A DNA stretch of 43,821 bases, from the UHGV virus genome UHGV-0374465. One strand, written 5' to 3'. This document shows positions 1,881 through 28,065 of this stretch, piece by piece. Below the pieces are notes generated by a model. It worked only from the letters and a program-made list of their open reading frames with translations. It made no database searches and had not been told where the DNA came from. How positions within the stretch are numbered: the first letter of the stretch is position 1; the number at the start of each line of letters is the position of its first letter. This stretch comes from a virus. A program made the translations under genes and the position numbers.

Positions 1881-1957
1881 TTTCTCACTCCTCAATTCTT
1901 TATATTCTCATTATAACACAAATAAAGGTGGCTGTGAACCACCTTTATACATAAATA

Positions 1958-4900: not shown

Positions 4901-6526
4901 CATGTTCGCAAAGTCATTCATCATACCCTTAACTACTTCACCCTGCGTCGCTTTACCATTTTTCCACTCATTGAATAAGTTCCGTGTTGATTCGCTAAAC
5001 ATGTCTGCGTTTTCTTCAAAACGCCCATCTGTTAAGGATATACCCATTTCTTTGATTAAATCGTTTACTTTATCTAAATTATATGCTCCGCCATCTAAAC
5101 CAGCTTCAAGTAAACTAAATGTTTCATCTGCTGTAAATCCCATTTGACCAAACAGTTGAGAATACTCAGCCATATTATCTGCTAGCTCGTTTGATTGATT
5201 CAATCCATTTTGTGCACCAGCAGTCAGTAAGTCAAAAGCTTCTTCAGCACTGATCCCAAAGTTTTCCATCATACGTGACGCACCACGCATGGTCTCATTT
5301 ACATCTGTATCAAATGTTTTACTGAATGAAATAGCGTATTTGGTTAATTGTTTCAATCCTTCTGGCGTAACTTTTTTACCAGCTGTTTGATAGACTTGTG
5401 TAATAGCCTCTTGAGCTTCTTCCAAGCTGTCTACCATTCCGGATTTTACTAATTCATTCGCAAAATTTAGGAATTGTTTAGATTCATCTTTCGTGATTCC
5501 CATTTTACCCTGAAATCTATTTGAGGCTTCCACTACTTCATTGAACGACTCTTTCAATGCATCTGCAGCTTCAATCGCCATATCTAGTGCTTTTGTTGAT
5601 ATGGAAACAGCTAAACCTGTAGCCAATGCACTAAATTCTTTAGTAGCACTTTTGAAACCAGATTCCGCCTTATTACCTTGTTTACCAGCTTCTTCTAGTG
5701 AGTCTCCAGCTTTATCTACTTTATCATCTACATTAGAGGCTTCTCGTTTCAACTCAGATAGTGCGTTAGTCACACCGTCTAAGCGTGTATCTGTATTTTT
5801 TGCTGAACGTTTGAAGTCTTCTAATTTGGCTTGTGCTTGTGCTACTTGTGTTGATGATTCACCAAACTCTTGCGCCATTTTGTTGATTGCTTGTTTTTGT
5901 GATTCAATGGCTTGCTCTGTTAATTCTGCTTGTTTTGTTAGTCCACGTTGTTTTGCTTCAAGCTCTCCAGCTTTATCTCCAGCTTCTTTGAATGCTTTAA
6001 TTTCATCATTCATTGCTTTTTCATTGTCTTTGATTGCTGACGCGTATTTATCCACACCAGCACTAGCTAGAATGTAAGCTTGTTTCGTTGAATCAAGTTC
6101 TTTTGATAGCTTATTGTATTTAACAGTAGCCGTATTTATTTGATTTGTAACGTTAGCCACTTGTTTAGATTCTTTTCCGTAGGTTTGAATATATTCCTCT
6201 CTACGTTTTTCCAACAATTGTATTTTCTTTGCTTGTAATTCTGTGGTATCAATTAACCCTTGCTGTTTGCGTGACAGGTCTTCAGCAGAGGCACCTGCCT
6301 TATCAAAGGTTGACATAGTTGCCTTCATGCTTGACTCTGACTGTTTTAAGGCTTTATTTAATTTGTCTAATGTATTAATGGATTCATCATAGCCATCAAA
6401 ACCAATTCCAAATTTCATATTTCCTATAGGTCTATCTTGTGCCATCAAGTTCACTCCTTTTGGTTGCTTTCTTAATCTATTATAACATAAAAAGAGACAC
6501 TCTAGCGGTGTGCTAAAGTGTCTCAC
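1958..6526 (-). CDS. Tail tape measure protein (1522 aa) with a lytic transglycosylase (SLT) domain and an M23 peptidase domain
   Basis: Large coiled-coil/TM-segmented protein downstream of the chaperone pair. GLMQVIDPTFRAY... is SLT-like. HGKRNAIDIALP...DHYDHVHLNG is an M23 HxxxD...HxH motif. Confidence 0.9.
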   Translation of the reverse strand: MRHFSTPLECLFLCYNRLRKQPKGVNLMAQDRPIGNMKFGIGFDGYDESINTLDKLNKALKQSESSMKATMSTFDKAGASAEDLSRKQQGLIDTTELQAKKIQLLEKRREEYIQTYGKESKQVANVTNQINTATVKYNKLSKELDSTKQAYILASAGVDKYASAIKDNEKAMNDEIKAFKEAGDKAGELEAKQRGLTKQAELTEQAIESQKQAINKMAQEFGESSTQVAQAQAKLEDFKRSAKNTDTRLDGVTNALSELKREASNVDDKVDKAGDSLEEAGKQGNKAESGFKSATKEFSALATGLAVSISTKALDMAIEAADALKESFNEVVEASNRFQGKMGITKDESKQFLNFANELVKSGMVDSLEEAQEAITQVYQTAGKKVTPEGLKQLTKYAISFSKTFDTDVNETMRGASRMMENFGISAEEAFDLLTAGAQNGLNQSNELADNMAEYSQLFGQMGFTADETFSLLEAGLDGGAYNLDKVNDLIKEMGISLTDGRFEENADMFSESTRNLFNEWKNGKATQGEVVKGMMNDFANMEGGYDALNRAGTVWSALGEDNSLKVIKAMAGASDSFGETKGSAEDLNNTMTNTTAWEAFTNGVKGTINSIAIWAQEFTGGMTEPIENFFNNTLPNAMETLDHFFFFVSNFISNLKDVIGKMWAGKDTVSDQHILNMMGFSWESIWALDDFITQVKEKGEVLTQYIKGFWQLFTGDEATQMQGYSLLRSLGMSQEDIDALETAKENIMKAFDSVKEVIIRLLEDGLDKMIQAWKDLVQIWEEVIAPDLLPLFQQFSDWLGRISGDLAYISGALDNFGGSGKRNSDIIIEAFSILWETLKIKLGLIMATIETAMIIISSTIKIWSDIFKGDWEGAWNGIKDMYDRISESIKTNLKNTFLGDMIKSIEDWNIRTTAAFTGWITDISIKFSTWLTNMKTWFKNLPGELADKFKSGGSKVADAFKSVFNGALKAIGKPVNGIIKGASWVLEKLGAEPLQEWDVPQYATGTPAGGHPINGPMMVNDGRGAETVITPDGRAFIPKGRNVVLNAPKGTHVLTAEETAQLQGSKAPKYRYKKGTNFFGNMWDSVKNIAGNVGNTLKNVVGDVWDFISDPGALARKVLGGLDVLGGLTKYPLEVGKGILSKATSALTEKITGLFSSGNLDTSIGTNGVYKYLADVAKSVMKKFPGFMVTSGYREGDQYSHGKRNAIDIALPGVTGGSPRYTEAANYAFDKFASKIGYVITNGKVRDRSGQSGTGIHNDWRPWPAGDHYDHVHLNGVKDPQSTQISGDSVGGSGVERWRNVAIRALKMTGQYSAANLNALLNQMRTESNGNPKAINLWDPNAMKGTPSKGLMQVIDPTFRAYAMPGFNSNIYDPLSNILASIKYALATYGSLTNAYRGVGYEYGGRVTKEHIARVGEGNKEEVIIPLTGSGLKRSRAMQLLAYANEKLNKQSTSTTVTTSNSNSDSNLQLIISLMQQQNEILTKLLEKNPDVLIDGKSLNRELQKINKNEQRNTNRALGLI

Positions 6527-7126
6527 CTTTTACTTTTGCCATATCTTGTGGACTCATAAATGTACCAAAGAAATCTATTGGGTCTTGTAGTTTTTCTTTT
6601 TTAGGTTTATTGTCTTTTGTAAATAACTCCATTAGTAAATTATAGTCAGCGTTGTTAATTTCTGATAGAGACCACGCTCCAGACTCACTGGATAGAAGGT
6701 CAGTGTACAGCTTGTCCATTGCTTCTATGTGTTCCTCCCAGCTTATTTCTGAGAGGTCTTTTTCACCTTTTTTGGCTGTTCAGCCATACCGCCTCCAATA
6801 GCCTCAAATACGCCACCTAACACTGATTCTAGTTTATCAGCGTCAACTCCATCAATAATTGACTCAAATGTTACTTCTGGGTTGTCAAACACATCTGCTA
6901 CTAACATAACCATTGCGTCAATTTGCTCTAGTGGACTCATTTTATCCTCACCAGATTCTACTTTTTCCATGCGTGCTTGGAATTTCATCATTTCACGCAT
7001 AGCACGCACTTTGATTGATTTTTGTTTAAACTCTTTTGTTTTTCCATCAATTTCTAATTTTAATGTAAGCATTTCAATTCCTCCAATTTTTAAATTCTTT
7101 ACTATTTCATTATAACATAGATTCAC
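6513..7126 (-). CDS. Tail assembly chaperone G-T fusion produced by a -1 programmed frameshift
   Basis: The -1 frame after A_AAA_AAG reads directly into ORF 6513..6719 (...KKGEKDLSEISWEEHIEAMDKLYTDLL...). This is the classic G/GT arrangement upstream of a TMP. Confidence 0.6.
6743..7126 (-). CDS. Tail assembly chaperone (gpG-like)
   Basis: 127 aa acidic protein between the major tail protein and the TMP. It ends 24 nt after a slippery heptamer. Confidence 0.7.
   Translation of the reverse strand: MNLCYNEIVKNLKIGGIEMLTLKLEIDGKTKEFKQKSIKVRAMREMMKFQARMEKVESGEDKMSPLEQIDAMVMLVADVFDNPEVTFESIIDGVDADKLESVLGGVFEAIGGGMAEQPKKVKKTSQK
6767..6773 (-). promoter_or_regulatory. Slippery heptamer A_AAA_AAG (programmed -1 ribosomal frameshift site)
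   Basis: Minus strand reads cca aaa aag gtg. The X_XXY_YYZ motif lies in the zero frame near the 3' end of the chaperone gene. Confidence 0.6.
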
Positions 7127-7137
7127 TTACTTGTGCA

Positions 7138-7168
7138 AATAAAAAACCTAGTCAATTAAGACTAGGTT
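7138..7168 (-). terminator. Rho-independent terminator downstream of the major tail protein gene
   Basis: 8 bp stem aacctagt/actaggtt followed by a T-run on the minus strand. Confidence 0.6.
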
Positions 7169-7174
7169 CAGTGG

Positions 7175-10523: not shown

Positions 10524-11075
10524 TTACAAGCCCAACAGCTCCAATTCAACTTCTAAGCGTTGCTTCTCTAATTCATTAACGGCTTCTTCTAGTGAACGTG
10601 TAGCAACTCGTACATCTGTGTCATCATAGGCTGGAATTGATACTAGTGAAATTTCTAATAATGAACCTATCTTATTAATTGAACGTTTCATAATGTCTTT
10701 ACCTTTTGTCCATTTGTCTTTCTTAACTGTGAAACCAAATGAGCATTGATTCAAATCACCTCGTTTTACAAGTTCCATTGCGTCACGCCCGTTACTTGTG
10801 TCAGGAAGTACACAACGAAAATGTAAACCAATGTCATCTACATTCAGTTGCAGTGTTCCGCTTGACGTGCGTCCTAATAATTTACTAGAGTCGTGATCCA
10901 TAAAACAACGTACGTCTGTTAAATCTACACCATCTAATGCTTCTGGTGAAATTGTCTCCACAAATCCACCTAAATTACGTGATTCTTTATTGAATTTTAG
11001 TGCGTACCCTTCTACTACATTATCCTCTGTCTTCTCCAGTGTCTGTAGGGCTCTGATTTCCAAGTTCTTCTTCAT
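10524..11075 (-). CDS. Prohead protease (HK97/S78 family)
   Basis: EGYALKFN...SFGF...ISLVSIPAY motifs. The RBS-supported start at 11075 overlaps the portal 3' end by ~55 nt. Confidence 0.8.
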   Translation of the reverse strand: MKKNLEIRALQTLEKTEDNVVEGYALKFNKESRNLGGFVETISPEALDGVDLTDVRCFMDHDSSKLLGRTSSGTLQLNVDDIGLHFRCVLPDTSNGRDAMELVKRGDLNQCSFGFTVKKDKWTKGKDIMKRSINKIGSLLEISLVSIPAYDDTDVRVATRSLEEAVNELEKQRLEVELELLGL

Positions 11076-12225
11076 TAACATCCACTTCCTGTTCTGTTTT
11101 ATTTTCAGTTGTTTCTGGTGTTTGACCAAGTAGGGCATCTCCTCCTTCAATCTCAGTAAACCCAAGGTATCCACGCGCGTCATTTACAGTTAGTGCTTGT
11201 GCAAACTCAGACTTAACTCTTCCTTCTGCGATTCTACGCAATCTATCCTCTTTTGTATCTTGACGTAGTTTAGATAAATCTAACTCCAACTCTACTCCTA
11301 ATTTCAGATTTATCTCATCACAGATAGATGATTCATACATAGCAATCGTACTGGCAATATATATGTCATTCTGACCTGTGTCAGATGAGTTGACTAGTTC
11401 TTGTCCAAATCTACTTACTGGAATACCCAATACTTTGGCAATTTGCTGCGTACTAAATTTGTTAGCTTGAATCAATTTTAGTACTTCTGTATTGATTTTA
11501 CTGTCAGTGAACTCTTGCGAGTCATCTATTACGACAACCCCACCGTTGCCGTTCACTGCTTCAAAGTCATCTCTAATTTGTTTCTTAGCACTGTTGTTAA
11601 CTGTACCATTTAATAGTTTAAGAATACCTCCAGAAAAGACGCCTTTTGAAAAGAAATTATTTAGTACTTTTAACCCATTAGTTTGTAATGATATTTCGTC
11701 GTTTAATGATAAGAGTGGTGAGCGTCCTAGCCAACCATCTGTTGTGCTTAATTTGAAGTGTAAAATATCACGTGGGTCACATTTGTACATAATATTCCCA
11801 TATGGCATATTAACCTCATATCTGTATAAGCCTGTCACCAAGTCTCTGATAACATTAACCTGTTGTGTTTCTACAAACTCTAACTCTTTTACACTATCGT
11901 CATTATTTCTATGAATGAGAACATATGCGTTTCCTGTTAGAATAAGGTTTGAAACCACTGCATACATCATGGTGTAGTGGGATTGATTTTCCTTTGGTTC
12001 TTTATTTAATATGTGCAACAAACTTTCATCAATCGTTGTAGTCTCTGCAGGTTTAAATGGACTTTGAGCAATGTCTCCAGCAATGATGTTGACTCCAGTA
12101 TAAATATCTGAGTTTGTCAATGCTTTTAGGCCTGTAAAGTTGGTAGTGTAAACTGTTCCAGTATTGATATAATCAATAAATTGTTGCTCTGTTACTGGAT
12201 TTCCGTTGTTTATGAATAATCCCAT
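11020..12225 (-). CDS. Portal protein
   Basis: 401 aa. Position after terL. HK97-type portal. Confidence 0.85.
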   Translation of the reverse strand: MGLFINNGNPVTEQQFIDYINTGTVYTTNFTGLKALTNSDIYTGVNIIAGDIAQSPFKPAETTTIDESLLHILNKEPKENQSHYTMMYAVVSNLILTGNAYVLIHRNNDDSVKELEFVETQQVNVIRDLVTGLYRYEVNMPYGNIMYKCDPRDILHFKLSTTDGWLGRSPLLSLNDEISLQTNGLKVLNNFFSKGVFSGGILKLLNGTVNNSAKKQIRDDFEAVNGNGGVVVIDDSQEFTDSKINTEVLKLIQANKFSTQQIAKVLGIPVSRFGQELVNSSDTGQNDIYIASTIAMYESSICDEINLKLGVELELDLSKLRQDTKEDRLRRIAEGRVKSEFAQALTVNDARGYLGFTEIEGGDALLGQTPETTENKTEQEVDVNEEELGNQSPTDTGEDRG

Positions 12226-12235
12226 TTATTATGAC

Positions 12236-12408
12236 CTCCCTTCTCCTGAATTAGTGGCTTCATGATATAAAACAATGGTTGGTATCATGAATAGTATACC
12301 ACAGGTGAACAATCCTATGATATTTGATACTAAAAACGCTGATAAAGCGATAAATACTGCGCTAATTATATACAAAACAGCTACAATAACCGCAACAAAT
12401 TTCATGTT
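12236..12408 (-). CDS. Small membrane protein (57 aa, below the ORF-track cutoff)
   Basis: AAAGGAG RBS + ATG. Hydrophobic MKFVAVIVAVLYIISAVFIALSAFLV... Lies between the terL terminator and the portal gene. Confidence 0.4.
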
Positions 12409-12458
12409 TTCACGCTCCTTTTGCGATATTTCTAACTCTATTTTAACACAAAATATAA

Positions 12459-12486
12459 GAAAAAAGTATGCTGTTTAGGCATACTC
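12459..12486 (-). terminator. Rho-independent terminator after terL
   Basis: agtatgc-tgtttag-gcatact hairpin followed by TTTTTT on the minus strand. Confidence 0.6.
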
Positions 12487-12498
12487 TCATGTGGTGTA

Positions 12499-14274
12499 TT
12501 AGTAACCGAAACCAAACTCTCCACTATCTAGTAAATCTTGCAATGTTGGAGCGTCATAATCATGATATTGAGCGTCACTCATCGCATTTATTATGGCATC
12601 AAGTGAGTCGATTTTATTTCTGTTTATTTGCTTATCAATTGCAACGCTGTCATTGTACTCTTTAATTATAGCATTGTATGCAGCACGATTCAATAAAGGG
12701 TTATTGGTGTGCATTACTTCACCTCTACGAATTAACTCACGCAAGGCTCTTGTTGGTGAAGATAAATAGTTTATTTTCTGTGGTACTTCAATTAGCTTTT
12801 TGGGATATGTTTTACTTAAATTAATCAAAGCTTTATCCATCATAAATGGATCATAATAGATTCCAATCAGTTGTAAATCATTATAATCTATAAAGTCACG
12901 TATCCAGTCGCACATTTCTTCTGTATCAATCAAGCCATCATCCCGTTGTGATATATGAATAAGGTTCATTGACTCATACTGTCTATAAGGTATTTTATCA
13001 ATTGACTGTTTATGGTCAATACCTCCTACTGATGATACAAAACCATGTGTATCTAGTAATAGCTTGTGCTCTTCTTCTATTGGAATAATCCATGAAACCG
13101 CGGTCATGTCTGATGTTCTAGCTAAGTCAATACCAATGTATACTTTTCTACCTCTAATATCATAATTAGTAGGTGCTTTCACTGAGTCCCATTCTTCTTT
13201 GGTCACAAAGCTATCTTTAGAGGATTGCACCCAGAAATTCATTTCTTTAGTTAACCAGCCAGATAAATCCATTTTACCTTTGTACTCATCTAAAGAGTTG
13301 TTTTTGTGTTCCATCATTGAGTCCCACGCTTCTGGAATTTCAAATAATGGATTGGATTTGATCCAGTTTGTAGGATCATCCACCTCAGCAAGTGAGTCCA
13401 TTTCCCAACAAAGAGCCAAATAAGCGTCACCTTTTACTTCCTCATTTAACAACTTCTCTACAAATGGATATTCTTCTGTATGCATGGGTCCATTTAAATT
13501 TTTTGTAGTGGTTGAAATAATCATGATTAAGCCTTCAACCTGTTGTGCTTGTGAAGATTCTAATACTTGAATAATATCTGATGTTTTAGCTTCTCCATAC
13601 TCATCCAGAATACCGCATAGCACATCTAATCCATCCAATGTTTCTGCGTCACTTGACAACTGTTTCATAGTTGAAAAGTCTGATAACTCTACCCCCTCAC
13701 GTTTTGTGATTTTACTTCGTTTCTTAACCTCTGGTGATACATTACGCAGTGCATATAGATACTTTACTAGCATTCCATATACAATACCTGCTTGATCTTT
13801 TGTGTTTGCTGCTGCCACTACCTGTCTAGAAGCTTTTGGATTTTTACCAAATAGCAGCTCATATAGTGCAATCCCTGCTACGAGAATAGACTTACCATTC
13901 TTACGTGCTAATGAAATATATGCTTTTCTAAAACGTCTGGTATTGTCTTTCTTTTTTCTCCATCCATAAATCAAACCAACGATGAATTTCTGAAATGTTG
14001 CTAACTTCATTGGCTGACGTGATTTGGGGTCTGGTAACATTTCAATAAAGTTCACTACTGGCACAGCTTCTTCTGGTCTATAAATATATGGATACGATTT
14101 ATCTTCAGATTTTTTCATATCCTTTTGATGTCTTTCAATTGCTTGTTTGATTTTTTTACCAACTCTGATTTCAACCTTAATAGGTTTATAATAATCTTCT
14201 TCTACTATATATTTACGTCCTTCAATCCATCCTGTTTCAATAAGATTAATATAGTCTTGTACATAGTCTACCAT
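12499..14274 (-). CDS. terL: Terminase large subunit
   Basis: 591 aa. Walker A at LARKNGKS. Terminase_1-like nuclease C-terminus. Confidence 0.9.
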   Translation of the reverse strand: MVDYVQDYINLIETGWIEGRKYIVEEDYYKPIKVEIRVGKKIKQAIERHQKDMKKSEDKSYPYIYRPEEAVPVVNFIEMLPDPKSRQPMKLATFQKFIVGLIYGWRKKKDNTRRFRKAYISLARKNGKSILVAGIALYELLFGKNPKASRQVVAAANTKDQAGIVYGMLVKYLYALRNVSPEVKKRSKITKREGVELSDFSTMKQLSSDAETLDGLDVLCGILDEYGEAKTSDIIQVLESSQAQQVEGLIMIISTTTKNLNGPMHTEEYPFVEKLLNEEVKGDAYLALCWEMDSLAEVDDPTNWIKSNPLFEIPEAWDSMMEHKNNSLDEYKGKMDLSGWLTKEMNFWVQSSKDSFVTKEEWDSVKAPTNYDIRGRKVYIGIDLARTSDMTAVSWIIPIEEEHKLLLDTHGFVSSVGGIDHKQSIDKIPYRQYESMNLIHISQRDDGLIDTEEMCDWIRDFIDYNDLQLIGIYYDPFMMDKALINLSKTYPKKLIEVPQKINYLSSPTRALRELIRRGEVMHTNNPLLNRAAYNAIIKEYNDSVAIDKQINRNKIDSLDAIINAMSDAQYHDYDAPTLQDLLDSGEFGFGY

Positions 14275-14306
14275 TTATGTATCCTCCTTTTATGCTAGTC
14301 ACTTAT

Positions 14307-14317
14307 ATTATAGCATA
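14307..14317 (-). promoter_or_regulatory. Conserved extended -10 element TATGCTATAAT directly upstream of terL
   Basis: Minus strand reads tttttTATGCTATAATataag, 35 nt before the terL ATG and just after a terminator. Confidence 0.4.
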
Positions 14318-14350
14318 AAAAAATACCCACTAGTTAGCTAGACTAGTGGG
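14317..14350 (-). terminator. Rho-independent terminator (hairpin CCCACTAGT-tagctag-ACTAGTGGG + T-run) at the end of the inter-terS/terL element
   Basis: 9 bp GC-rich stem followed by TATTTTTTT on the minus strand. Confidence 0.65.
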
Positions 14351-14670
14351 TTCATCTACACACCACTAAAGAGTGGGTGAAGCGAGTATCTGCAGGTTTC
14401 CACGCCCTCTGTTATGTGGCTAACTGCTTTGTCGTGCTTGTCGTCAAAGAGGGTCATACTATCACGCATTCGCTAGACACTGTAGCGAGCAGTCGTTTAG
14501 GTGCGCCGTCCACTAGTTAGCTAGACTAGTGGACGGTTAGTATCTGCGAATATACACGCCCTACGTTTAGTGCATATCCACTTTAGTGTGCATGTCGTCA
14601 AGTAGGGCATACTATCACACTATCCGCCAGATACTGTGGCGAGCGGTCGTTTACGTGTGCCGTCCACGAC
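14351..14670 (-). repeat. Two duplicated ~150 bp structured units separated by a 12 bp-stem palindromic hairpin. Candidate ncRNA or packaging-site element.
   Basis: Unit A (14351-14505) and unit B (14537-14670) align with conserved blocks (agtatctgc, catactatcac, gtcgttta, gccgtccac). Two helices covary between copies. No coding capacity. Confidence 0.5.
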
Positions 14671-14789
14671 TGTTCAGTTTCCAACAGCAACCCTTTTTAC
14701 CGTGGAGTGTGGTGAACCACCATTCATTGCCACGTATGGTGCACATAATATCCTTGAATATCAGTGGGTGTCACGTGTACTAGTAAATA

Positions 14790-14818
14790 TATTATAACAC
14801 AAAATCCGACTTCTGTGT
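14790..14818 (-). promoter_or_regulatory. Candidate extended -10 promoter (TGTTATAAT) that could drive transcription of the structured element
   Basis: Minus strand reads aacacagaagtcggattttgTGtTATAAT. The -35 is weak. Confidence 0.3.
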
Positions 14819-14890
14819 TATTTAGTGTATCTAATGTTTACCCCTTATTTGCTATATACATTATACCACATCTATTTAGTTTTGTGTATT

Positions 14891-15355
14891 TTATCCCTCA
14901 AACATTTTTGCGAATGGGTCAAGTACTTCTTTTTCTTTCTCTGCTGGAAGAATAATTTTCATTCTTGAATTGATTGTTAATCCAAGGTCATTGGTTGCCG
15001 TTTTAAGCTCTTTTGAGTATGAGTTCATCGCATTTACCCATGGGTTGGCTTTACCTGTCTCAGGGTCAATAGCGCCCATCTGTGCAACCTTCTCCACTGC
15101 TTCCCCATATAGATAATTGTAGTTACAATATCTAATGACTGTATTAACGTCTAATTCAGAAATAGGTAAGTCACCTACATAAGCGCCAATGCGATCCCAT
15201 TCGTTGAATGCTTGTGGTAATAAACCTGGTGGATAAAAACTGAAGTCTAACTTTTCGTAGTTGTAAAGTACTTCTTCCTCCTTCTCACGCTCTTCTCGTT
15301 GCTGAGTGGTCAAGTTACCACTCTGAGCGTTTAATAATTTTCGTGGTCTTGCCAT
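14891..15355 (-). CDS. terS: Terminase small subunit (P27 family)
   Basis: 154 aa starting MARPRK..., upstream of terL in an HNH-cos type module. Confidence 0.75.
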   Translation of the reverse strand: MARPRKLLNAQSGNLTTQQREEREKEEEVLYNYEKLDFSFYPPGLLPQAFNEWDRIGAYVGDLPISELDVNTVIRYCNYNYLYGEAVEKVAQMGAIDPETGKANPWVNAMNSYSKELKTATNDLGLTINSRMKIILPAEKEKEVLDPFAKMFEG

Positions 15356-15361
15356 TTATTT

Positions 15362-15652
15362 TCACTCCTTAATTTCTTTTATGAATTTAATTACAATTAC
15401 TCTAGAATCATAATCAATAGTTAATTCATATTGTGCAAAATAATTTGTATCTCCTGAAACAACATCAGCTACTACCATATGATGGTGCCCTTCTTCTCCA
15501 AAAGTTTTATAGCTCTCCATAAGGTTTAATACCCCATATTCTTTACCATCAATAATAAACTCAGGAGCATATGTTTTATTTTCAATACGCTTATATTCCA
15601 CGTTTTCAATAGGTATTGATGTATATCCCTCTTCCTGATAATATAAAATCAT
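15362..15652 (-). CDS. Hypothetical protein
   Basis: 96 aa with an RBS, between the 60 aa ORF and terS. Confidence 0.5.
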   Translation of the reverse strand: MILYYQEEGYTSIPIENVEYKRIENKTYAPEFIIDGKEYGVLNLMESYKTFGEEGHHHMVVADVVSGDTNYFAQYELTIDYDSRVIVIKFIKEIKE

Positions 15653-15654
15653 GT

Positions 15655-15837
15655 TTAATCCTCCTTTGGAGCTTCTGTAATTTCAAAGTGACGATTGCGT
15701 CCGCCTAATTTTGTTTTAATATCCTTAAAGTAGCCACGCTTTTTATTATAAAAATCATCTGCTGCAAATTGTGATTTGAATTTGCGTGTCTGCCCAGTTG
15801 ATAAATCTTTTACGTACACTGGTTTTGGTGCAGGCAT
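15655..15837 (-). CDS. Hypothetical basic protein
   Basis: 60 aa, GGGAGG RBS. Confidence 0.45.
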   Translation of the reverse strand: MPAPKPVYVKDLSTGQTRKFKSQFAADDFYNKKRGYFKDIKTKLGGRNRHFEITEAPKED

Positions 15838-15894
15838 TGTATAACCTCCCTTATTTTATTTTTGAGTTAACGGCTAACTCCCTTACATAGCTTT

Positions 15895-15905
15895 ATTATA
15901 TCATA
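15895..15905 (-). promoter_or_regulatory. Extended -10 element TATGATATAAT (variant of the late motif)
   Basis: Minus strand reads tttaTATGATATAATaaagc, upstream of the 60aa-96aa-terS cluster. Confidence 0.35.
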
Positions 15906-16084
15906 TAAAAAGAACCCTGTGTAAAGAAACCAGGGTTCAATCGTGTTTACTAAGGGAACAATCGTATAAGAGAAATAACATACTATATATAGTGTGATTC
16001 CTTTATTTTCAACACAAGAAACCAGGTTTTAATCACGTTTACGAGGGGAAAATGGCATTTTTCAAAGTTCATTTTTAGAATTTC

Positions 16085-16186
16085 GTGCGAAGAAGAGGGG
16101 GCAGCGATTAATTCGTTATAAAAAGGTAGGCGGGTAAAAACATTTTGGGTCTCCCTAAAAATGTTTTTGTCTGCGCGCTTGTTGAT
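16085..16186. other. GC-rich non-coding segment downstream of HNH. Candidate cos/packaging site.
   Basis: gaagaagagggggcagcg...ggtaggcggg...gtctgcgcgcttg, unusually GC-rich for this genome. Adjacent ~35 bp direct repeats at 15923-15957 and 16015-16050. Confidence 0.25.
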
Positions 16187-16579
16187 TTAGCGCTGTTCCC
16201 TACCTCTATTTTTCCAACTGTAGTTATGTTCTTCCTTGTTATGACACTCGTAACAGATTGACTCTAAGTTATTTAAATCAAGTCTATGTTTCCATCCGTT
16301 TGGACTTCTTAATTCTATCTTATGGTGAACCATGTTAGCGTTGGTGTACTTGCCTTGTGCTAAGCATACCTCGCAGAGTGGTTGCTCCATTAGCTTGGCT
16401 TTACGTGCGTTCCTCCATTGGGTTGAATGATAGAAGTTACTGTACTTCTTGTTGTCTTCGTTGTATCTCACGTGCTTATTGTATTGGCTATTGTTGTACC
16501 CTTGATGTGCGTCACAGTAGCGCTCAGGTAGCGTGACATAGTTGCGACATGAAGCCACTGCACACTTACGTTGTGGCAT
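16187..16579 (-). CDS. HNH endonuclease (packaging-associated)
   Basis: C-x4-C ... HHKIELRSPNGW ... CYECHNKEEH. RBS-supported start at 16579 (MPQRKCAVASC). Classic HNH-TerS-TerL arrangement. Confidence 0.85.
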   Translation of the reverse strand: MPQRKCAVASCRNYVTLPERYCDAHQGYNNSQYNKHVRYNEDNKKYSNFYHSTQWRNARKAKLMEQPLCEVCLAQGKYTNANMVHHKIELRSPNGWKHRLDLNNLESICYECHNKEEHNYSWKNRGREQR

Positions 16580-16622
16580 TGTGTTACTCCTTTCTACTAT
16601 TGTATAGAAGAAAAGACTACTA

Positions 16623-16781
16623 TTATTTAGTAGTCTTTTTTGCTTTAACAACAATCTTGTCTGTTGGTTGTTCTACTTTGACTGAGTCAGGTAGCTTTGC
16701 TGGCTGATGTTTGGCACAGTATTGTGCTGGTAGCTTAACTGTTTCGTTACACCCTTCGTGATTGCAGTACATATATGGCAA
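16623..16781 (-). CDS. Small Cys-rich protein (52 aa) resembling the N-terminal zinc-ribbon motif of the HNH protein
   Basis: GGGAGGTG RBS + TTG. YCNHEGCNETVKLPAQYCAKHQ versus HNH CAVASCRNYVTLPERYCDAHQ. Confidence 0.35.
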   Translation of the reverse strand: MPYMYCNHEGCNETVKLPAQYCAKHQPAKLPDSVKVEQPTDKIVVKAKKTTK

Positions 16782-16813
16782 GTGGAACACCTCCCTTCAG
16801 TATTAAATAAGTA

Positions 16814-27799: not shown

Positions 27800-27999
27800 T
27801 GGATAAGCGATTATTTAACACAGAGTTTAAAAATGGATATTGTGTGACAGTATTCAGTCAATCAAGATTTGAGTTACAATACTATGTAGAAGTTTTCCAT
27901 GTTAATGAGCCGCAAGATAATCATAGAGTTGAGTTTCATACCGCGCGCGAGGTTTTTGGATATTTATCAGATATTCAAAATTATAAACAAAAAGACTAG
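27799..27999 (+). CDS. Hypothetical protein
   Basis: 66 aa, GGAGG RBS. Confidence 0.45.
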   Translation: MDKRLFNTEFKNGYCVTVFSQSRFELQYYVEVFHVNEPQDNHRVEFHTAREVFGYLSDIQNYKQKD

Positions 28000-28020
28000 T
28001 CAATTGACTAGTCTTAACGA
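27997..28020. repeat. Perfect 24 bp palindrome AAGACTAGTCAATTGACTAGTCTT
   Basis: Exact symmetry, overlaps a stop codon. The ACTAGT hexamer is also the core of the terS-terL hairpins. Confidence 0.6.
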
Positions 28021-28065
28021 GAGGAGGGAGGAGGAATCCCTATAATTAATTATAGCATAAAATAA

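Follow-up and report, generated by a model that had tools for sequence, protein, structure and literature searches.

Why are the terS and terL genes of an Enterococcus phage, which normally adjoin each other, separated by several hundred base pairs of DNA? The window, the whole 43,821-nucleotide stretch analyzed here (virus genome UHGV-0374465), belongs to a siphophage of Enterococcus faecium whose kin include IME-EFm1, IME-EFm5, and KEN21. The 12-kb region around the terS–terL gap is 89–93% identical to SSBHU, KEN21, and IME-EFm5 over 73–82% of its length. A BLAST search with the 616-bp gap returned 37 phage records, all from Enterococcus phages and most from E. faecium siphophages akin to IME-EFm1, IME-EFm5, dArtagnan, and the KEN phages. 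The genes at this locus lie on the minus strand, and the gap and its neighbors are as follows.

11020-12225, minus strand: portal gene
12499-14274, minus strand: TerL, with ATPase and nuclease domains (domain match)
14275-14890: terS–terL gap, 616 bp
14891-15355, minus strand: TerS, Terminase_4, P27-type (domain match)
16187-16654: HNH endonuclease

The premise of a preliminary description of this DNA, that terS and terL are normally adjacent, is borne out by distant relatives. In most of 22 IMG/VR loci with TerL identities of 30–45% (mostly 36–37%), a terS-sized ORF abuts or overlaps terL, and in a few a short additional ORF lies between the two. In the 17 close relatives (78–99% identity), terS and terL are separated by a gap of 320–860 nt or an inserted ORF is present. 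GenBank records for KEN18, KEN21, and EF36P1 annotate spurious small proteins across the gap, and other records leave the region blank. The GC content across 14300–14800 of the window is 0.45–0.50, as compared to 0.28–0.39 in the flanking genes. A raised GC content is typical of structured RNA within AT-rich genomes.

The gap contains no ORF longer than 65 aa, and none of its small ORFs has a convincing match to a PHROG family (best E = 0.089). A protein-coding gene or its decayed remnant was rejected on these grounds, and the same searches uphold the earlier claim that the gap lacks coding capacity. The gaps of relatives differ by 1-nt indels, and their variation tracks base pairs rather than codons. 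Known RNA classes were also sought. No tRNA or tmRNA was found. The Rfam search proposed with the preliminary description, run with Rfam 15 on the window, the gap, and the loci of 12 relatives, matched no family: there was no match at the gathering threshold in the whole window, only two chance-level matches (E = 6–8) under permissive conditions (E ≤ 10) at 14200–14950, and nothing at E ≤ 0.1 in the 12 relatives. The literature searched contains no description of this element.

The gap does contain a repeat. Positions 14385–14453 and 14539–14607 match at 71%, and positions 14468–14513 and 14622–14667 match at 85%, both at a spacing of 154 nt. Two identical copies of a 23-nt hairpin core, CCACTAGTTAGCTAGACTAGTGG, lie at 14327 and 14510, and perfect hairpins are present at 14325–14334/14342–14351 (10 bp) and 14506–14517/14525–14536 (12 bp). 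A covariance model of the repeated unit, built from relatives, detects exactly two copies in the 43.8-kb window, with the third-best match at 11 bits.

14537-14644, minus strand: unit B, a predicted ~108-nt RNA domain (covariance model, 122 bits)
14383-14490, minus strand: unit A (covariance model, 114 bits), 99% identical to the single unit of IME-EFm1

The repeats and the covariance model agree with the original observation of two homologous units accompanied by ACTAGT hairpins.

Each unit appears to be a ~108-nt RNA domain of three hairpins, encoded on the minus strand in the sense of terS and terL. Hairpin Ha is CGCCA-CAGUAUC-UGGCG in unit B and has the stem CGCUA/UAGCG in unit A. Hairpin P3, with the stem AGUGUG/CACACU in unit B and GCGUG/CACG in unit A, closes a 26-nt loop with invariant GAUAGUAUGA, CCCUAC, and UUGACGAC. 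An AAAG linker joins hairpin P3 to hairpin S1, which has 12 bp in unit B and two 4-bp segments separated by an internal loop in unit A. The loops of P3 and S1 are complementary to each other, with CCCUAC/GUAGGG in unit B and CCCUCU/AGAGGG in unit A. The unit ends in the tail GCAGAUAC, whose GAUAC can pair with GUAUC in the loop of Ha. The preliminary description had reported two helices that keep pairing between the two copies. Both sets of sequences are present, but GCCCTAC of unit B lies at 14558–14564 rather than 14568–14574. Helix 2 is the stem of hairpin Ha and part of a larger fold. The complementarity called helix 1 is real, but it represents pairing potential between the loops of two hairpins rather than a simple helix.

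An alignment of 31 units was used to examine this fold. The proposed partners pair in 91.9% of cells, as compared to 84.2% after shuffling and 19–56% when the partners are slid. Fifteen pairs show double changes, RNAalifold recovers Ha, P3, and S1 unaided, and 54 alignment columns never vary, even though the units diverge by as much as ~25% elsewhere. A scan of all column pairs returns many spurious compensatory pairs and is swamped by the split between the A and B lineages. Because this split inflates the counts, covariation was recounted within the 18 type-B units alone. In this set, 6 of the 12 pairs of S1 show double changes and Ha keeps one double change. Hairpin P3 and the loop–loop pairing are invariant within type B, and their support consists of one A/B split plus wobble variants; for the pairing of the tail with the Ha loop, it consists of wobble variants. 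The S1 helix is strongly supported by covariation and the Ha helix moderately so. Judged from these patterns, the unit fold is under selection. The covariation test that had been proposed for the two original helices came out moderately in favor of helix 2 (Ha), and for helix 1 it gave the single A/B split plus wobble variants. The two copies in the window are two alleles, so the compensatory differences between them reflect one allelic split, and A-versus-B compensation is weak evidence alone, since the same pattern is found in numerous unrelated pairs of columns.

Which strand carries the structure is not distinguished by folding energy, which beats shuffled sequences on both strands (z = -4.3 and -6.4), or by RNAalifold, which scores the two strands equally. 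The G–U variants differ between strands: over the unit, the terminator, and the hairpin preceding the terL Shine–Dalgarno sequence, ~20 pair columns carry forms that can pair only on the minus strand, whereas ~4 favor the plus strand. The minus strand is indicated by this G–U/A–C asymmetry, by the U-tract of the terminator, and by the conservation of the extended -10 promoters. The predicted signals and the remaining parts of the gap are listed here in the direction of transcription.

14860-14888, minus strand: predicted promoter P1, with TACACA, a 17-nt spacer, and the TG-extended -10 TGGTATAAT at 14860-14868 (promoter scan and pattern search)
14794-14821, minus strand: hairpin AUAACACAGAA/UUUUGUGUUAU between P1 and P2 (inverted repeat), its 3' arm overlapping the -10 region of P2
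14791-14799, minus strand: predicted promoter P2, extended -10 TGTTATAAT (pattern search)
14727-14785, minus strand: RNA 5' domain, shared with phiSHEF2-type E. faecalis phages
14746-14763, minus strand: hairpin Y, UGAUAU-UCAAGG-AUAUUA, within the 5' domain
14654-14723, minus strand: middle modules (from sequence), recombined differently in relatives
14691-14721, minus strand: middle module, GUGG...CCAC hairpin followed by GUAAAAAGGG
14670-14687, minus strand: middle module, hairpin CUGUU-GGAAACUG-AACAG
14654-14668, minus strand: middle module, hairpin CGUG-GACGGCA-CACG followed by UAAACGAC
14506-14536, minus strand: internal hairpin 2, a 12-bp stem with loop CUAGCUA and no U-tract (inverted repeat)
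14359-14379, minus strand: optional hairpin CACCCACU-CUUU-AGUGGUGUG between unit A and the terminator, partly repeating the terminator arms
14318-14351, minus strand: predicted intrinsic terminator ACCCACUAGU-CUAGCUA-ACUAGUGGGU followed by AUUUUUUU (terminator scan)
14311-14320 with 14288-14297, minus strand: pre-Shine–Dalgarno hairpin UUUUAUGCUA/UAGCAUAAAA (inverted repeat)
14307-14315, minus strand: predicted terL promoter P3, TGCTATAAT (pattern search)
14283-14287, minus strand: terL Shine–Dalgarno sequence GGAGG

Three sites in the gap are, as consensus matches, sigma-A extended -10 promoters, the pattern being TGnTATAAT and often TRTGnTATAAT. In the window, the extended -10 of P1 lies 23 nt past the terS stop codon. 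When relatives were scanned with TGnTATA[AC]T, a sense extended -10 was found just past terS in 16 of 16 gaps, 22–24 nt after the stop codon in 15 of 15 E. faecium-type gaps and 8 nt after it in phiSHEF2. A P2-type -10 lies ~92 nt past the terS stop codon in 8 of the 16. An extended -10 is located ~40 nt before terL in 15 of them, and the sixteenth, LG62, ends at the end of the record. The antisense strand of the same 16 gaps yielded no extended -10. The motif ACACAAAA..TTTTGTG of the P1–P2 hairpin region is also found in relatives. Downstream, hairpin Y is enclosed by a pairing, read by eye, between CACGUG (14772–14777) and UACGUG (14731–14736); its phiSHEF2 counterpart, UGAUGU-UCAAGG-ACAUUA, carries one compensatory change. 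The 5' domain is the only piece of the gap also shared with the phiSHEF2-type E. faecalis phages, at query positions 453–528 in the BLAST search. In other phages, the last middle-module slot holds different hairpins, followed by UAAAA.

The stem-loop at 14351–14325 on the minus strand has the makeup of an intrinsic terminator, with a 10-bp stem that includes five GC pairs, a loop of 7 nt, and a U7 tail, whereas internal hairpin 2, without a U-tract, does not. It scores as a predicted terminator on the minus strand only and is one of only two terminators found within 12300–16800. In an alignment of 21 sequences, two of its stem pairs show compensatory changes, with U–G intermediates on the minus strand only, and the loop is nearly invariant; covariation moderately supports the stem. 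The optional hairpin upstream is limited to the window, EFm1, Aramis, KEN21, L022, L028, and L030, and in KEN21 it and the terminator change together, C to U. On the other side, the pre-Shine–Dalgarno hairpin would pair the terminator U-tract with sequence just before the terL ribosome-binding site, and its variation is confined to wobble pairs, in 14 cells, apart from 3 cells with a mismatch. The promoter and terminator scans place the extended -10 TGTTATAAT, the terminator, and the terL promoter TGCTATAAT where the preliminary description had put them. Its central claim is supported: the element is structured, lacks coding capacity, reads as minus-strand RNA, and lies between a predicted promoter and a predicted rho-independent terminator. 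The structural genes hold, on the minus strand, at least four instances of a terminator followed immediately by T(R)TGnTATAAT (1948–1910, 6524–6479, 7169–7109, and 14351–14307), a recurrence that suggests that transcription of this phage is punctuated into separate units.

The preliminary description also asked whether homologous phages carry the element. Of the 17 close TerL relatives, 16 carry the unit, in every case on the same strand as terL. L156 lacks the unit and keeps the terminator. The covariance model found no unit in distant TerL relatives. The 3' end of the unit lies ~80 nt before the terL ATG in close loci without an extra hairpin or inserted gene, and 6–10 nt before the terminator stem in most phages. 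Across 29 relative loci, the covariance model finds the unit in 28 and none in phiSHEF2; two full copies occur only in KEN21, and one IMG/VR contig has a partial second copy. Pattern scans added ~16 units from IMG/VR and three from metagenomes, the latter all in phage-like contexts. An exact-pattern scan of 185,579 bacterial and archaeal genomes returned only chance matches, and a search of plasmids for the unit returned none. A mobile non-autonomous element (a MITE or an IS200/605-type hairpin) or a host-derived sequence was rejected because copies are confined to this locus.

Most relatives carry a single unit, so the duplication, previously taken as part of the element, is not a feature of the family. 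The unit is type A in EFm1, SSBHU, BUCT630, EF36P1, LG62, and EhiS268 and type B in Aramis, dArtagnan, EFm5, 9184, DELF1, S_9, and KEN18. The window and KEN21 have both, B then A in the direction of transcription. In the window, the part of the gap nearest terL matches IME-EFm1 at 99% identity, and the remainder resembles EFm5 and dArtagnan. The two segments meet at a GTGG microhomology, where the 3' arm of a terminator hairpin joins the hairpin that normally precedes a unit, and this position accounts for the loss of the U-tract from internal hairpin 2. The junction recurs in KEN21, where one pair of the hairpin is mismatched; in the window, a C-to-T change restores this pair. The tandem looks like the product of recombination between alleles, not of ancestral duplication. 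Elsewhere in the gap, small hairpin modules form a mosaic whose combinations differ between phages. Phages of the phiSHEF2 type keep the framing of promoter, modules, terminator, promoter, and terL, though with modules that are unrelated apart from the 5' domain. The gap of some relatives holds inserted HNH or small ORFs, and in EF36P1, L023/L147, and DELF1 another gene lies between the unit–terminator pair and terL. Unit type is not associated with the N-terminal type of TerL, as A and B occur with each. A search of the phage genome for targets complementary to the conserved single-stranded stretches returned only self-matches and chance matches with one mismatch.

These data allow us to propose how the element might work. 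The reading that we favor, to which we give about an even chance, is that the gap is a separate non-coding transcription unit that also provides the 3' end of terS transcripts and is insulated from terL by a terminator–promoter cassette. Host RNA polymerase would start at one or two extended -10 promoters just past the terS stop codon, and transcripts of the terS operon probably also run into the gap, because there is no terminator after terS. The RNA, with a predicted length of ~0.46 kb from P2 or ~0.53 kb from P1, would fold as a chain of small structured modules and end at the ACUAGU hairpin and its U-tract. Its best-conserved module would be the ~108-nt domain in which the loops of hairpins 2 and 3 are complementary. 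terL would then be transcribed anew from its own promoter directly past the terminator; with a terminator and a fresh promoter in this arrangement, the element would uncouple terS from terL. The sequence comparisons show the anatomy, conservation, base-pair covariation, strand, and position of the element and that it has neither coding nor cos function; from them we infer working promoters and a working terminator at the predicted sites and an RNA that acts as a free, stable molecule.

The main rival, possible but rather doubtful, is a cis-acting leader of terL and the late genes, in which read-through of the terminator would be controlled by the folded domain, alone or together with a bound protein or small molecule, in the manner of a riboswitch, an attenuator, or a processive antitermination RNA. 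Promoter, structured domain, terminator, ribosome-binding site, and gene follow one another in the classic Firmicute layout, and candidate structured RNAs upstream of large-terminase genes are, by the description given in one survey, catalogued in viral metagenomes (PMC10690425). In each of the 16 close loci with a unit, the unit is next to the terminator and terL, although in several relatives an extra hairpin or inserted gene separates it from terL; a cis-regulator would look like this too, and the short distance from the terminator stem in most phages also fits a leader. However, the other gene between the unit–terminator pair and terL in some relatives, the terminator without a unit in L156, and the upstream unit of the tandem, which precedes a hairpin without a U-tract, all argue against such a coupling. 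The pre-Shine–Dalgarno hairpin requires a read-through RNA, and its largely wobble-limited variation suggests that read-through transcripts exist and matter; yet read-through is not needed for terL expression if the conserved extended -10 between the terminator and terL serves as a promoter. In a subset of phages, the extra hairpin that repeats the terminator arms, and that co-changes with the terminator in KEN21, permits a 1:2/2:3/3:4 attenuator. Against this, inspection by eye found no conserved sequence in the unit able to pair with the 5' arm of the terminator. A partial match of S1 to a terminator arm, AGUGG/CCACU, is present in some type-B units and fails in EFm5, L016, and L094; this match was dropped because it is not conserved.

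The structures could instead be mainly by-products of a recombination-prone spacer visited by homing-endonuclease genes, with functionless units and no role for the gap other than to end terS and restart terL transcription. The mosaic of interchangeable modules, 320–860 nt in length, the HNH and small-ORF insertions, and the absence of the unit from L156 and phiSHEF2-type phages would all fit. We nevertheless judge this unlikely, as the unit retains its invariant columns amid divergence of up to ~25%, its helices survive at least six independent double changes in S1 in addition to changes in Ha, and it is kept in nearly all close relatives despite rampant shuffling around it. Less probable still is a site that acts as DNA, whether cos or pac, a sequence recognized by TerS, an origin of replication, or palindromes to which a phage regulator would bind as operators. 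The center of the terminator palindrome, ACTAGT-CTAGCTA-ACTAGT, is nearly invariant and lies ~20–46 bp upstream of the terL -10, a position compatible with an activator. However, the palindrome is found nowhere else in the genome (the other paired ACTAGT, at 27995–28012, is a different hairpin), and stem variants that are G–U compatible on one strand only are a signature of RNA rather than of a DNA palindrome. The packaging site itself maps elsewhere. [quoted passage not shown] One 20-mer flanking the IME-EFm1 terminus matches the window exactly at 16107–16126, and the other flank corresponds to 16079–16097, where it meets the end of the IME-EFm1 record. These matches place cos, by homology, at 16098–16106, with the HNH gene on one side and on the other two small ORFs upstream of terS, and ~1.2 kb from the element, and they refute the suggestion that the element is the cos or TerS-binding site with the palindromes as nicking sites.

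A role in trans, as a new class of phage RNA, seems improbable to us, whether as a packaging cofactor or regulator acting through loop multimers or as a decoy for host defense. If the packaging version were true, the loops would pair between molecules and the multimer would serve the TerS/TerL/portal machine, extending a pRNA-like principle to a cos siphovirus. If the decoy version were true, the RNA would neutralize a host RNA-binding defense or nuclease, and the A/B specificities and shuffled modules would reflect an arms race. Antitoxin RNAs of the ToxI type are tandem repeats of ~34–45 nt beside an endoribonuclease toxin gene. A type III toxin–antitoxin antitoxin RNA was rejected for the element, whose units are 108–154 nt, mostly in one copy, and have terS and terL as neighbors.

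A whole clade of E. faecium phages that are therapeutic candidates apparently places a conserved structured RNA with predicted promoters between two genes that are almost always adjacent or overlapping. If functional, it would represent an RNA family not described before, one whose unusual fold relies on hairpin loops complementary to each other, and would join the short list of phage non-coding RNAs. The element may reveal how these phages adjust their TerS:TerL ratio, control the timing of packaging, or oppose functions of the host.

Among known systems are the PR'–tR' unit of phage lambda, the source of 6S RNA, and similar short terminated transcripts that precede phage late genes: just ahead of the morphogenesis genes, a non-coding RNA runs from a promoter that looks constitutive to a strong intrinsic terminator. 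The element resembles the lambda unit in having a predicted promoter, non-coding RNA, and terminator just ahead of such genes. It differs in having its own promoter past the terminator, an RNA that would be 2–3 times longer, and covarying domains, and no Q-like factor or qut-like site was identified for it. The put RNA of HK022, ~70 nt with two stem-loops directly past its promoter, acts in processive antitermination. The element would likewise give an RNA encoded in cis and rich in stem-loops, with a promoter before it and a terminator after it within a phage operon, but its unit lies 250–400 nt downstream of the promoter and adjoins the terminator. Firmicute attenuation leaders (riboswitches, T-boxes, and protein-binding leaders) are similar in that a folded domain, here ~100 nt with a candidate loop–loop contact, precedes a terminator, a ribosome-binding site, and a gene. 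In contrast to them, the element has no Rfam match at a meaningful score, no conserved antiterminator pairing was found in it, and a predicted promoter precedes the gene.

The pRNA of phi29 is a phage-encoded structured RNA that functions in DNA packaging and has two complementary, co-varying loops. The unit is comparable in size, within 100–170 nt, and in its complementary loops that co-vary between relatives, with a link to packaging by position alone. The Rfam pRNA model was part of the library scanned, and no match to it was reported. The phage that carries the unit is not a protein-primed podovirus but a siphovirus with a cos site and genes for TerS, TerL, and HNH; in this respect, the element departs from a phi29-type pRNA, which belongs to protein-primed phi29-like phages without TerS. 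Closest in position are the candidates of a 2023 computational survey, which, as described there, are uncharacterized structured RNAs found consistently upstream of terL in IMG/VR, beside a psiM2_ORF9-type terminase (PMC10690425). They share with the element a structured RNA upstream of terL and differ, in that description, by the terminase next to which they are reported. With these candidates compared by description only, the unit appears to be a new RNA family within the phage intergenic structured RNAs, carried by a narrow clade of phages.

The terS–terL gap appears to be an insertion and recombination hotspot. Extra genes are inserted in the gap of some relatives, namely L014 (DELF1), L151, L010 (EF36P1), L147, L156 and L158; the insert is an HNH endonuclease gene that overlaps the start of terL, an 86-aa ORF that has a terminator of its own, or a 339-aa ORF. 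The record of L008 (Aramis, LR990833.1) contains a tandem duplication of 61 bp at ~2440-2560 of the locus, and the duplicated stretch covers the terL ribosome-binding site, the promoter and half of the terminator. This duplication may be genuine, or it may be an assembly artefact. L156 (positions 1445-2081) lacks the ~108-nt RNA domain termed the unit but retains the ACTAGT terminator, the predicted intrinsic terminator of the gap. A hairpin motif, in which GUGG...CCAC leads into GUUAAA or GUAAA, is present there four times; this motif is also found three times in the gap of the window (14691-14721, 14654-14668 and 14500-14513). GenBank records of KEN18 (L005), KEN21 (L006) and EF36P1 annotate several "hypothetical proteins" of 29-130 aa across the non-coding gap. 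These annotations overlap RNA helices that covary, and the proteins are likely to be spurious.

A recurrent cassette, in which a terminator hairpin is directly followed by T(R)TGnTATAAT, was found across the structural genes:

1910-1948, minus strand, terminator-promoter cassette
6479-6524, minus strand, terminator-promoter cassette
7109-7169, minus strand, terminator-promoter cassette
14307-14351, minus strand, terminator-promoter cassette

The window contains 18 occurrences of TGNTATAAT versus 4.7 expected, with 13 of the 18 on the minus strand. An extended -10 promoter also lies within ~27990-28060:

28049-28057, minus strand, extended -10 promoter TGCTATAAT

This promoter is followed by a CU-rich, anti-Shine-Dalgarno-like stretch, CCUCCUCCCUCCUCUC, and then by a hairpin, AAGACUAGUC-AAUU-GACUAGUCUU, with U's. 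The minus strand of ~27990-28060 could encode a small RNA of ~55-60 nt, antisense in the space that separates plus-strand genes. The other possibility is that the hairpin simply serves the plus-strand gene as a two-way terminator.

Upstream of terS, exact homology with the mapped virion DNA ends of IME-EFm1, a close relative, places the cohesive-end site (cos) of the UHGV-0374465 phage at 16098-16106. An HNH gene lies on one side of cos, and two small ORFs lie on the other:

16098-16106, cos, with flanks 16079-16097 and 16107-16126
15362-15652, minus strand, 96-aa ORF between cos and terS
15655-15837, minus strand, 60-aa ORF between cos and terS

Neither ORF has a match in Pfam. The 60-aa ORF is conserved in several relatives, where it is the first gene. 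The predicted 9-nt cos overhang is GGGGCAGCG in the window versus GGGTCAGCG in IME-EFm1.
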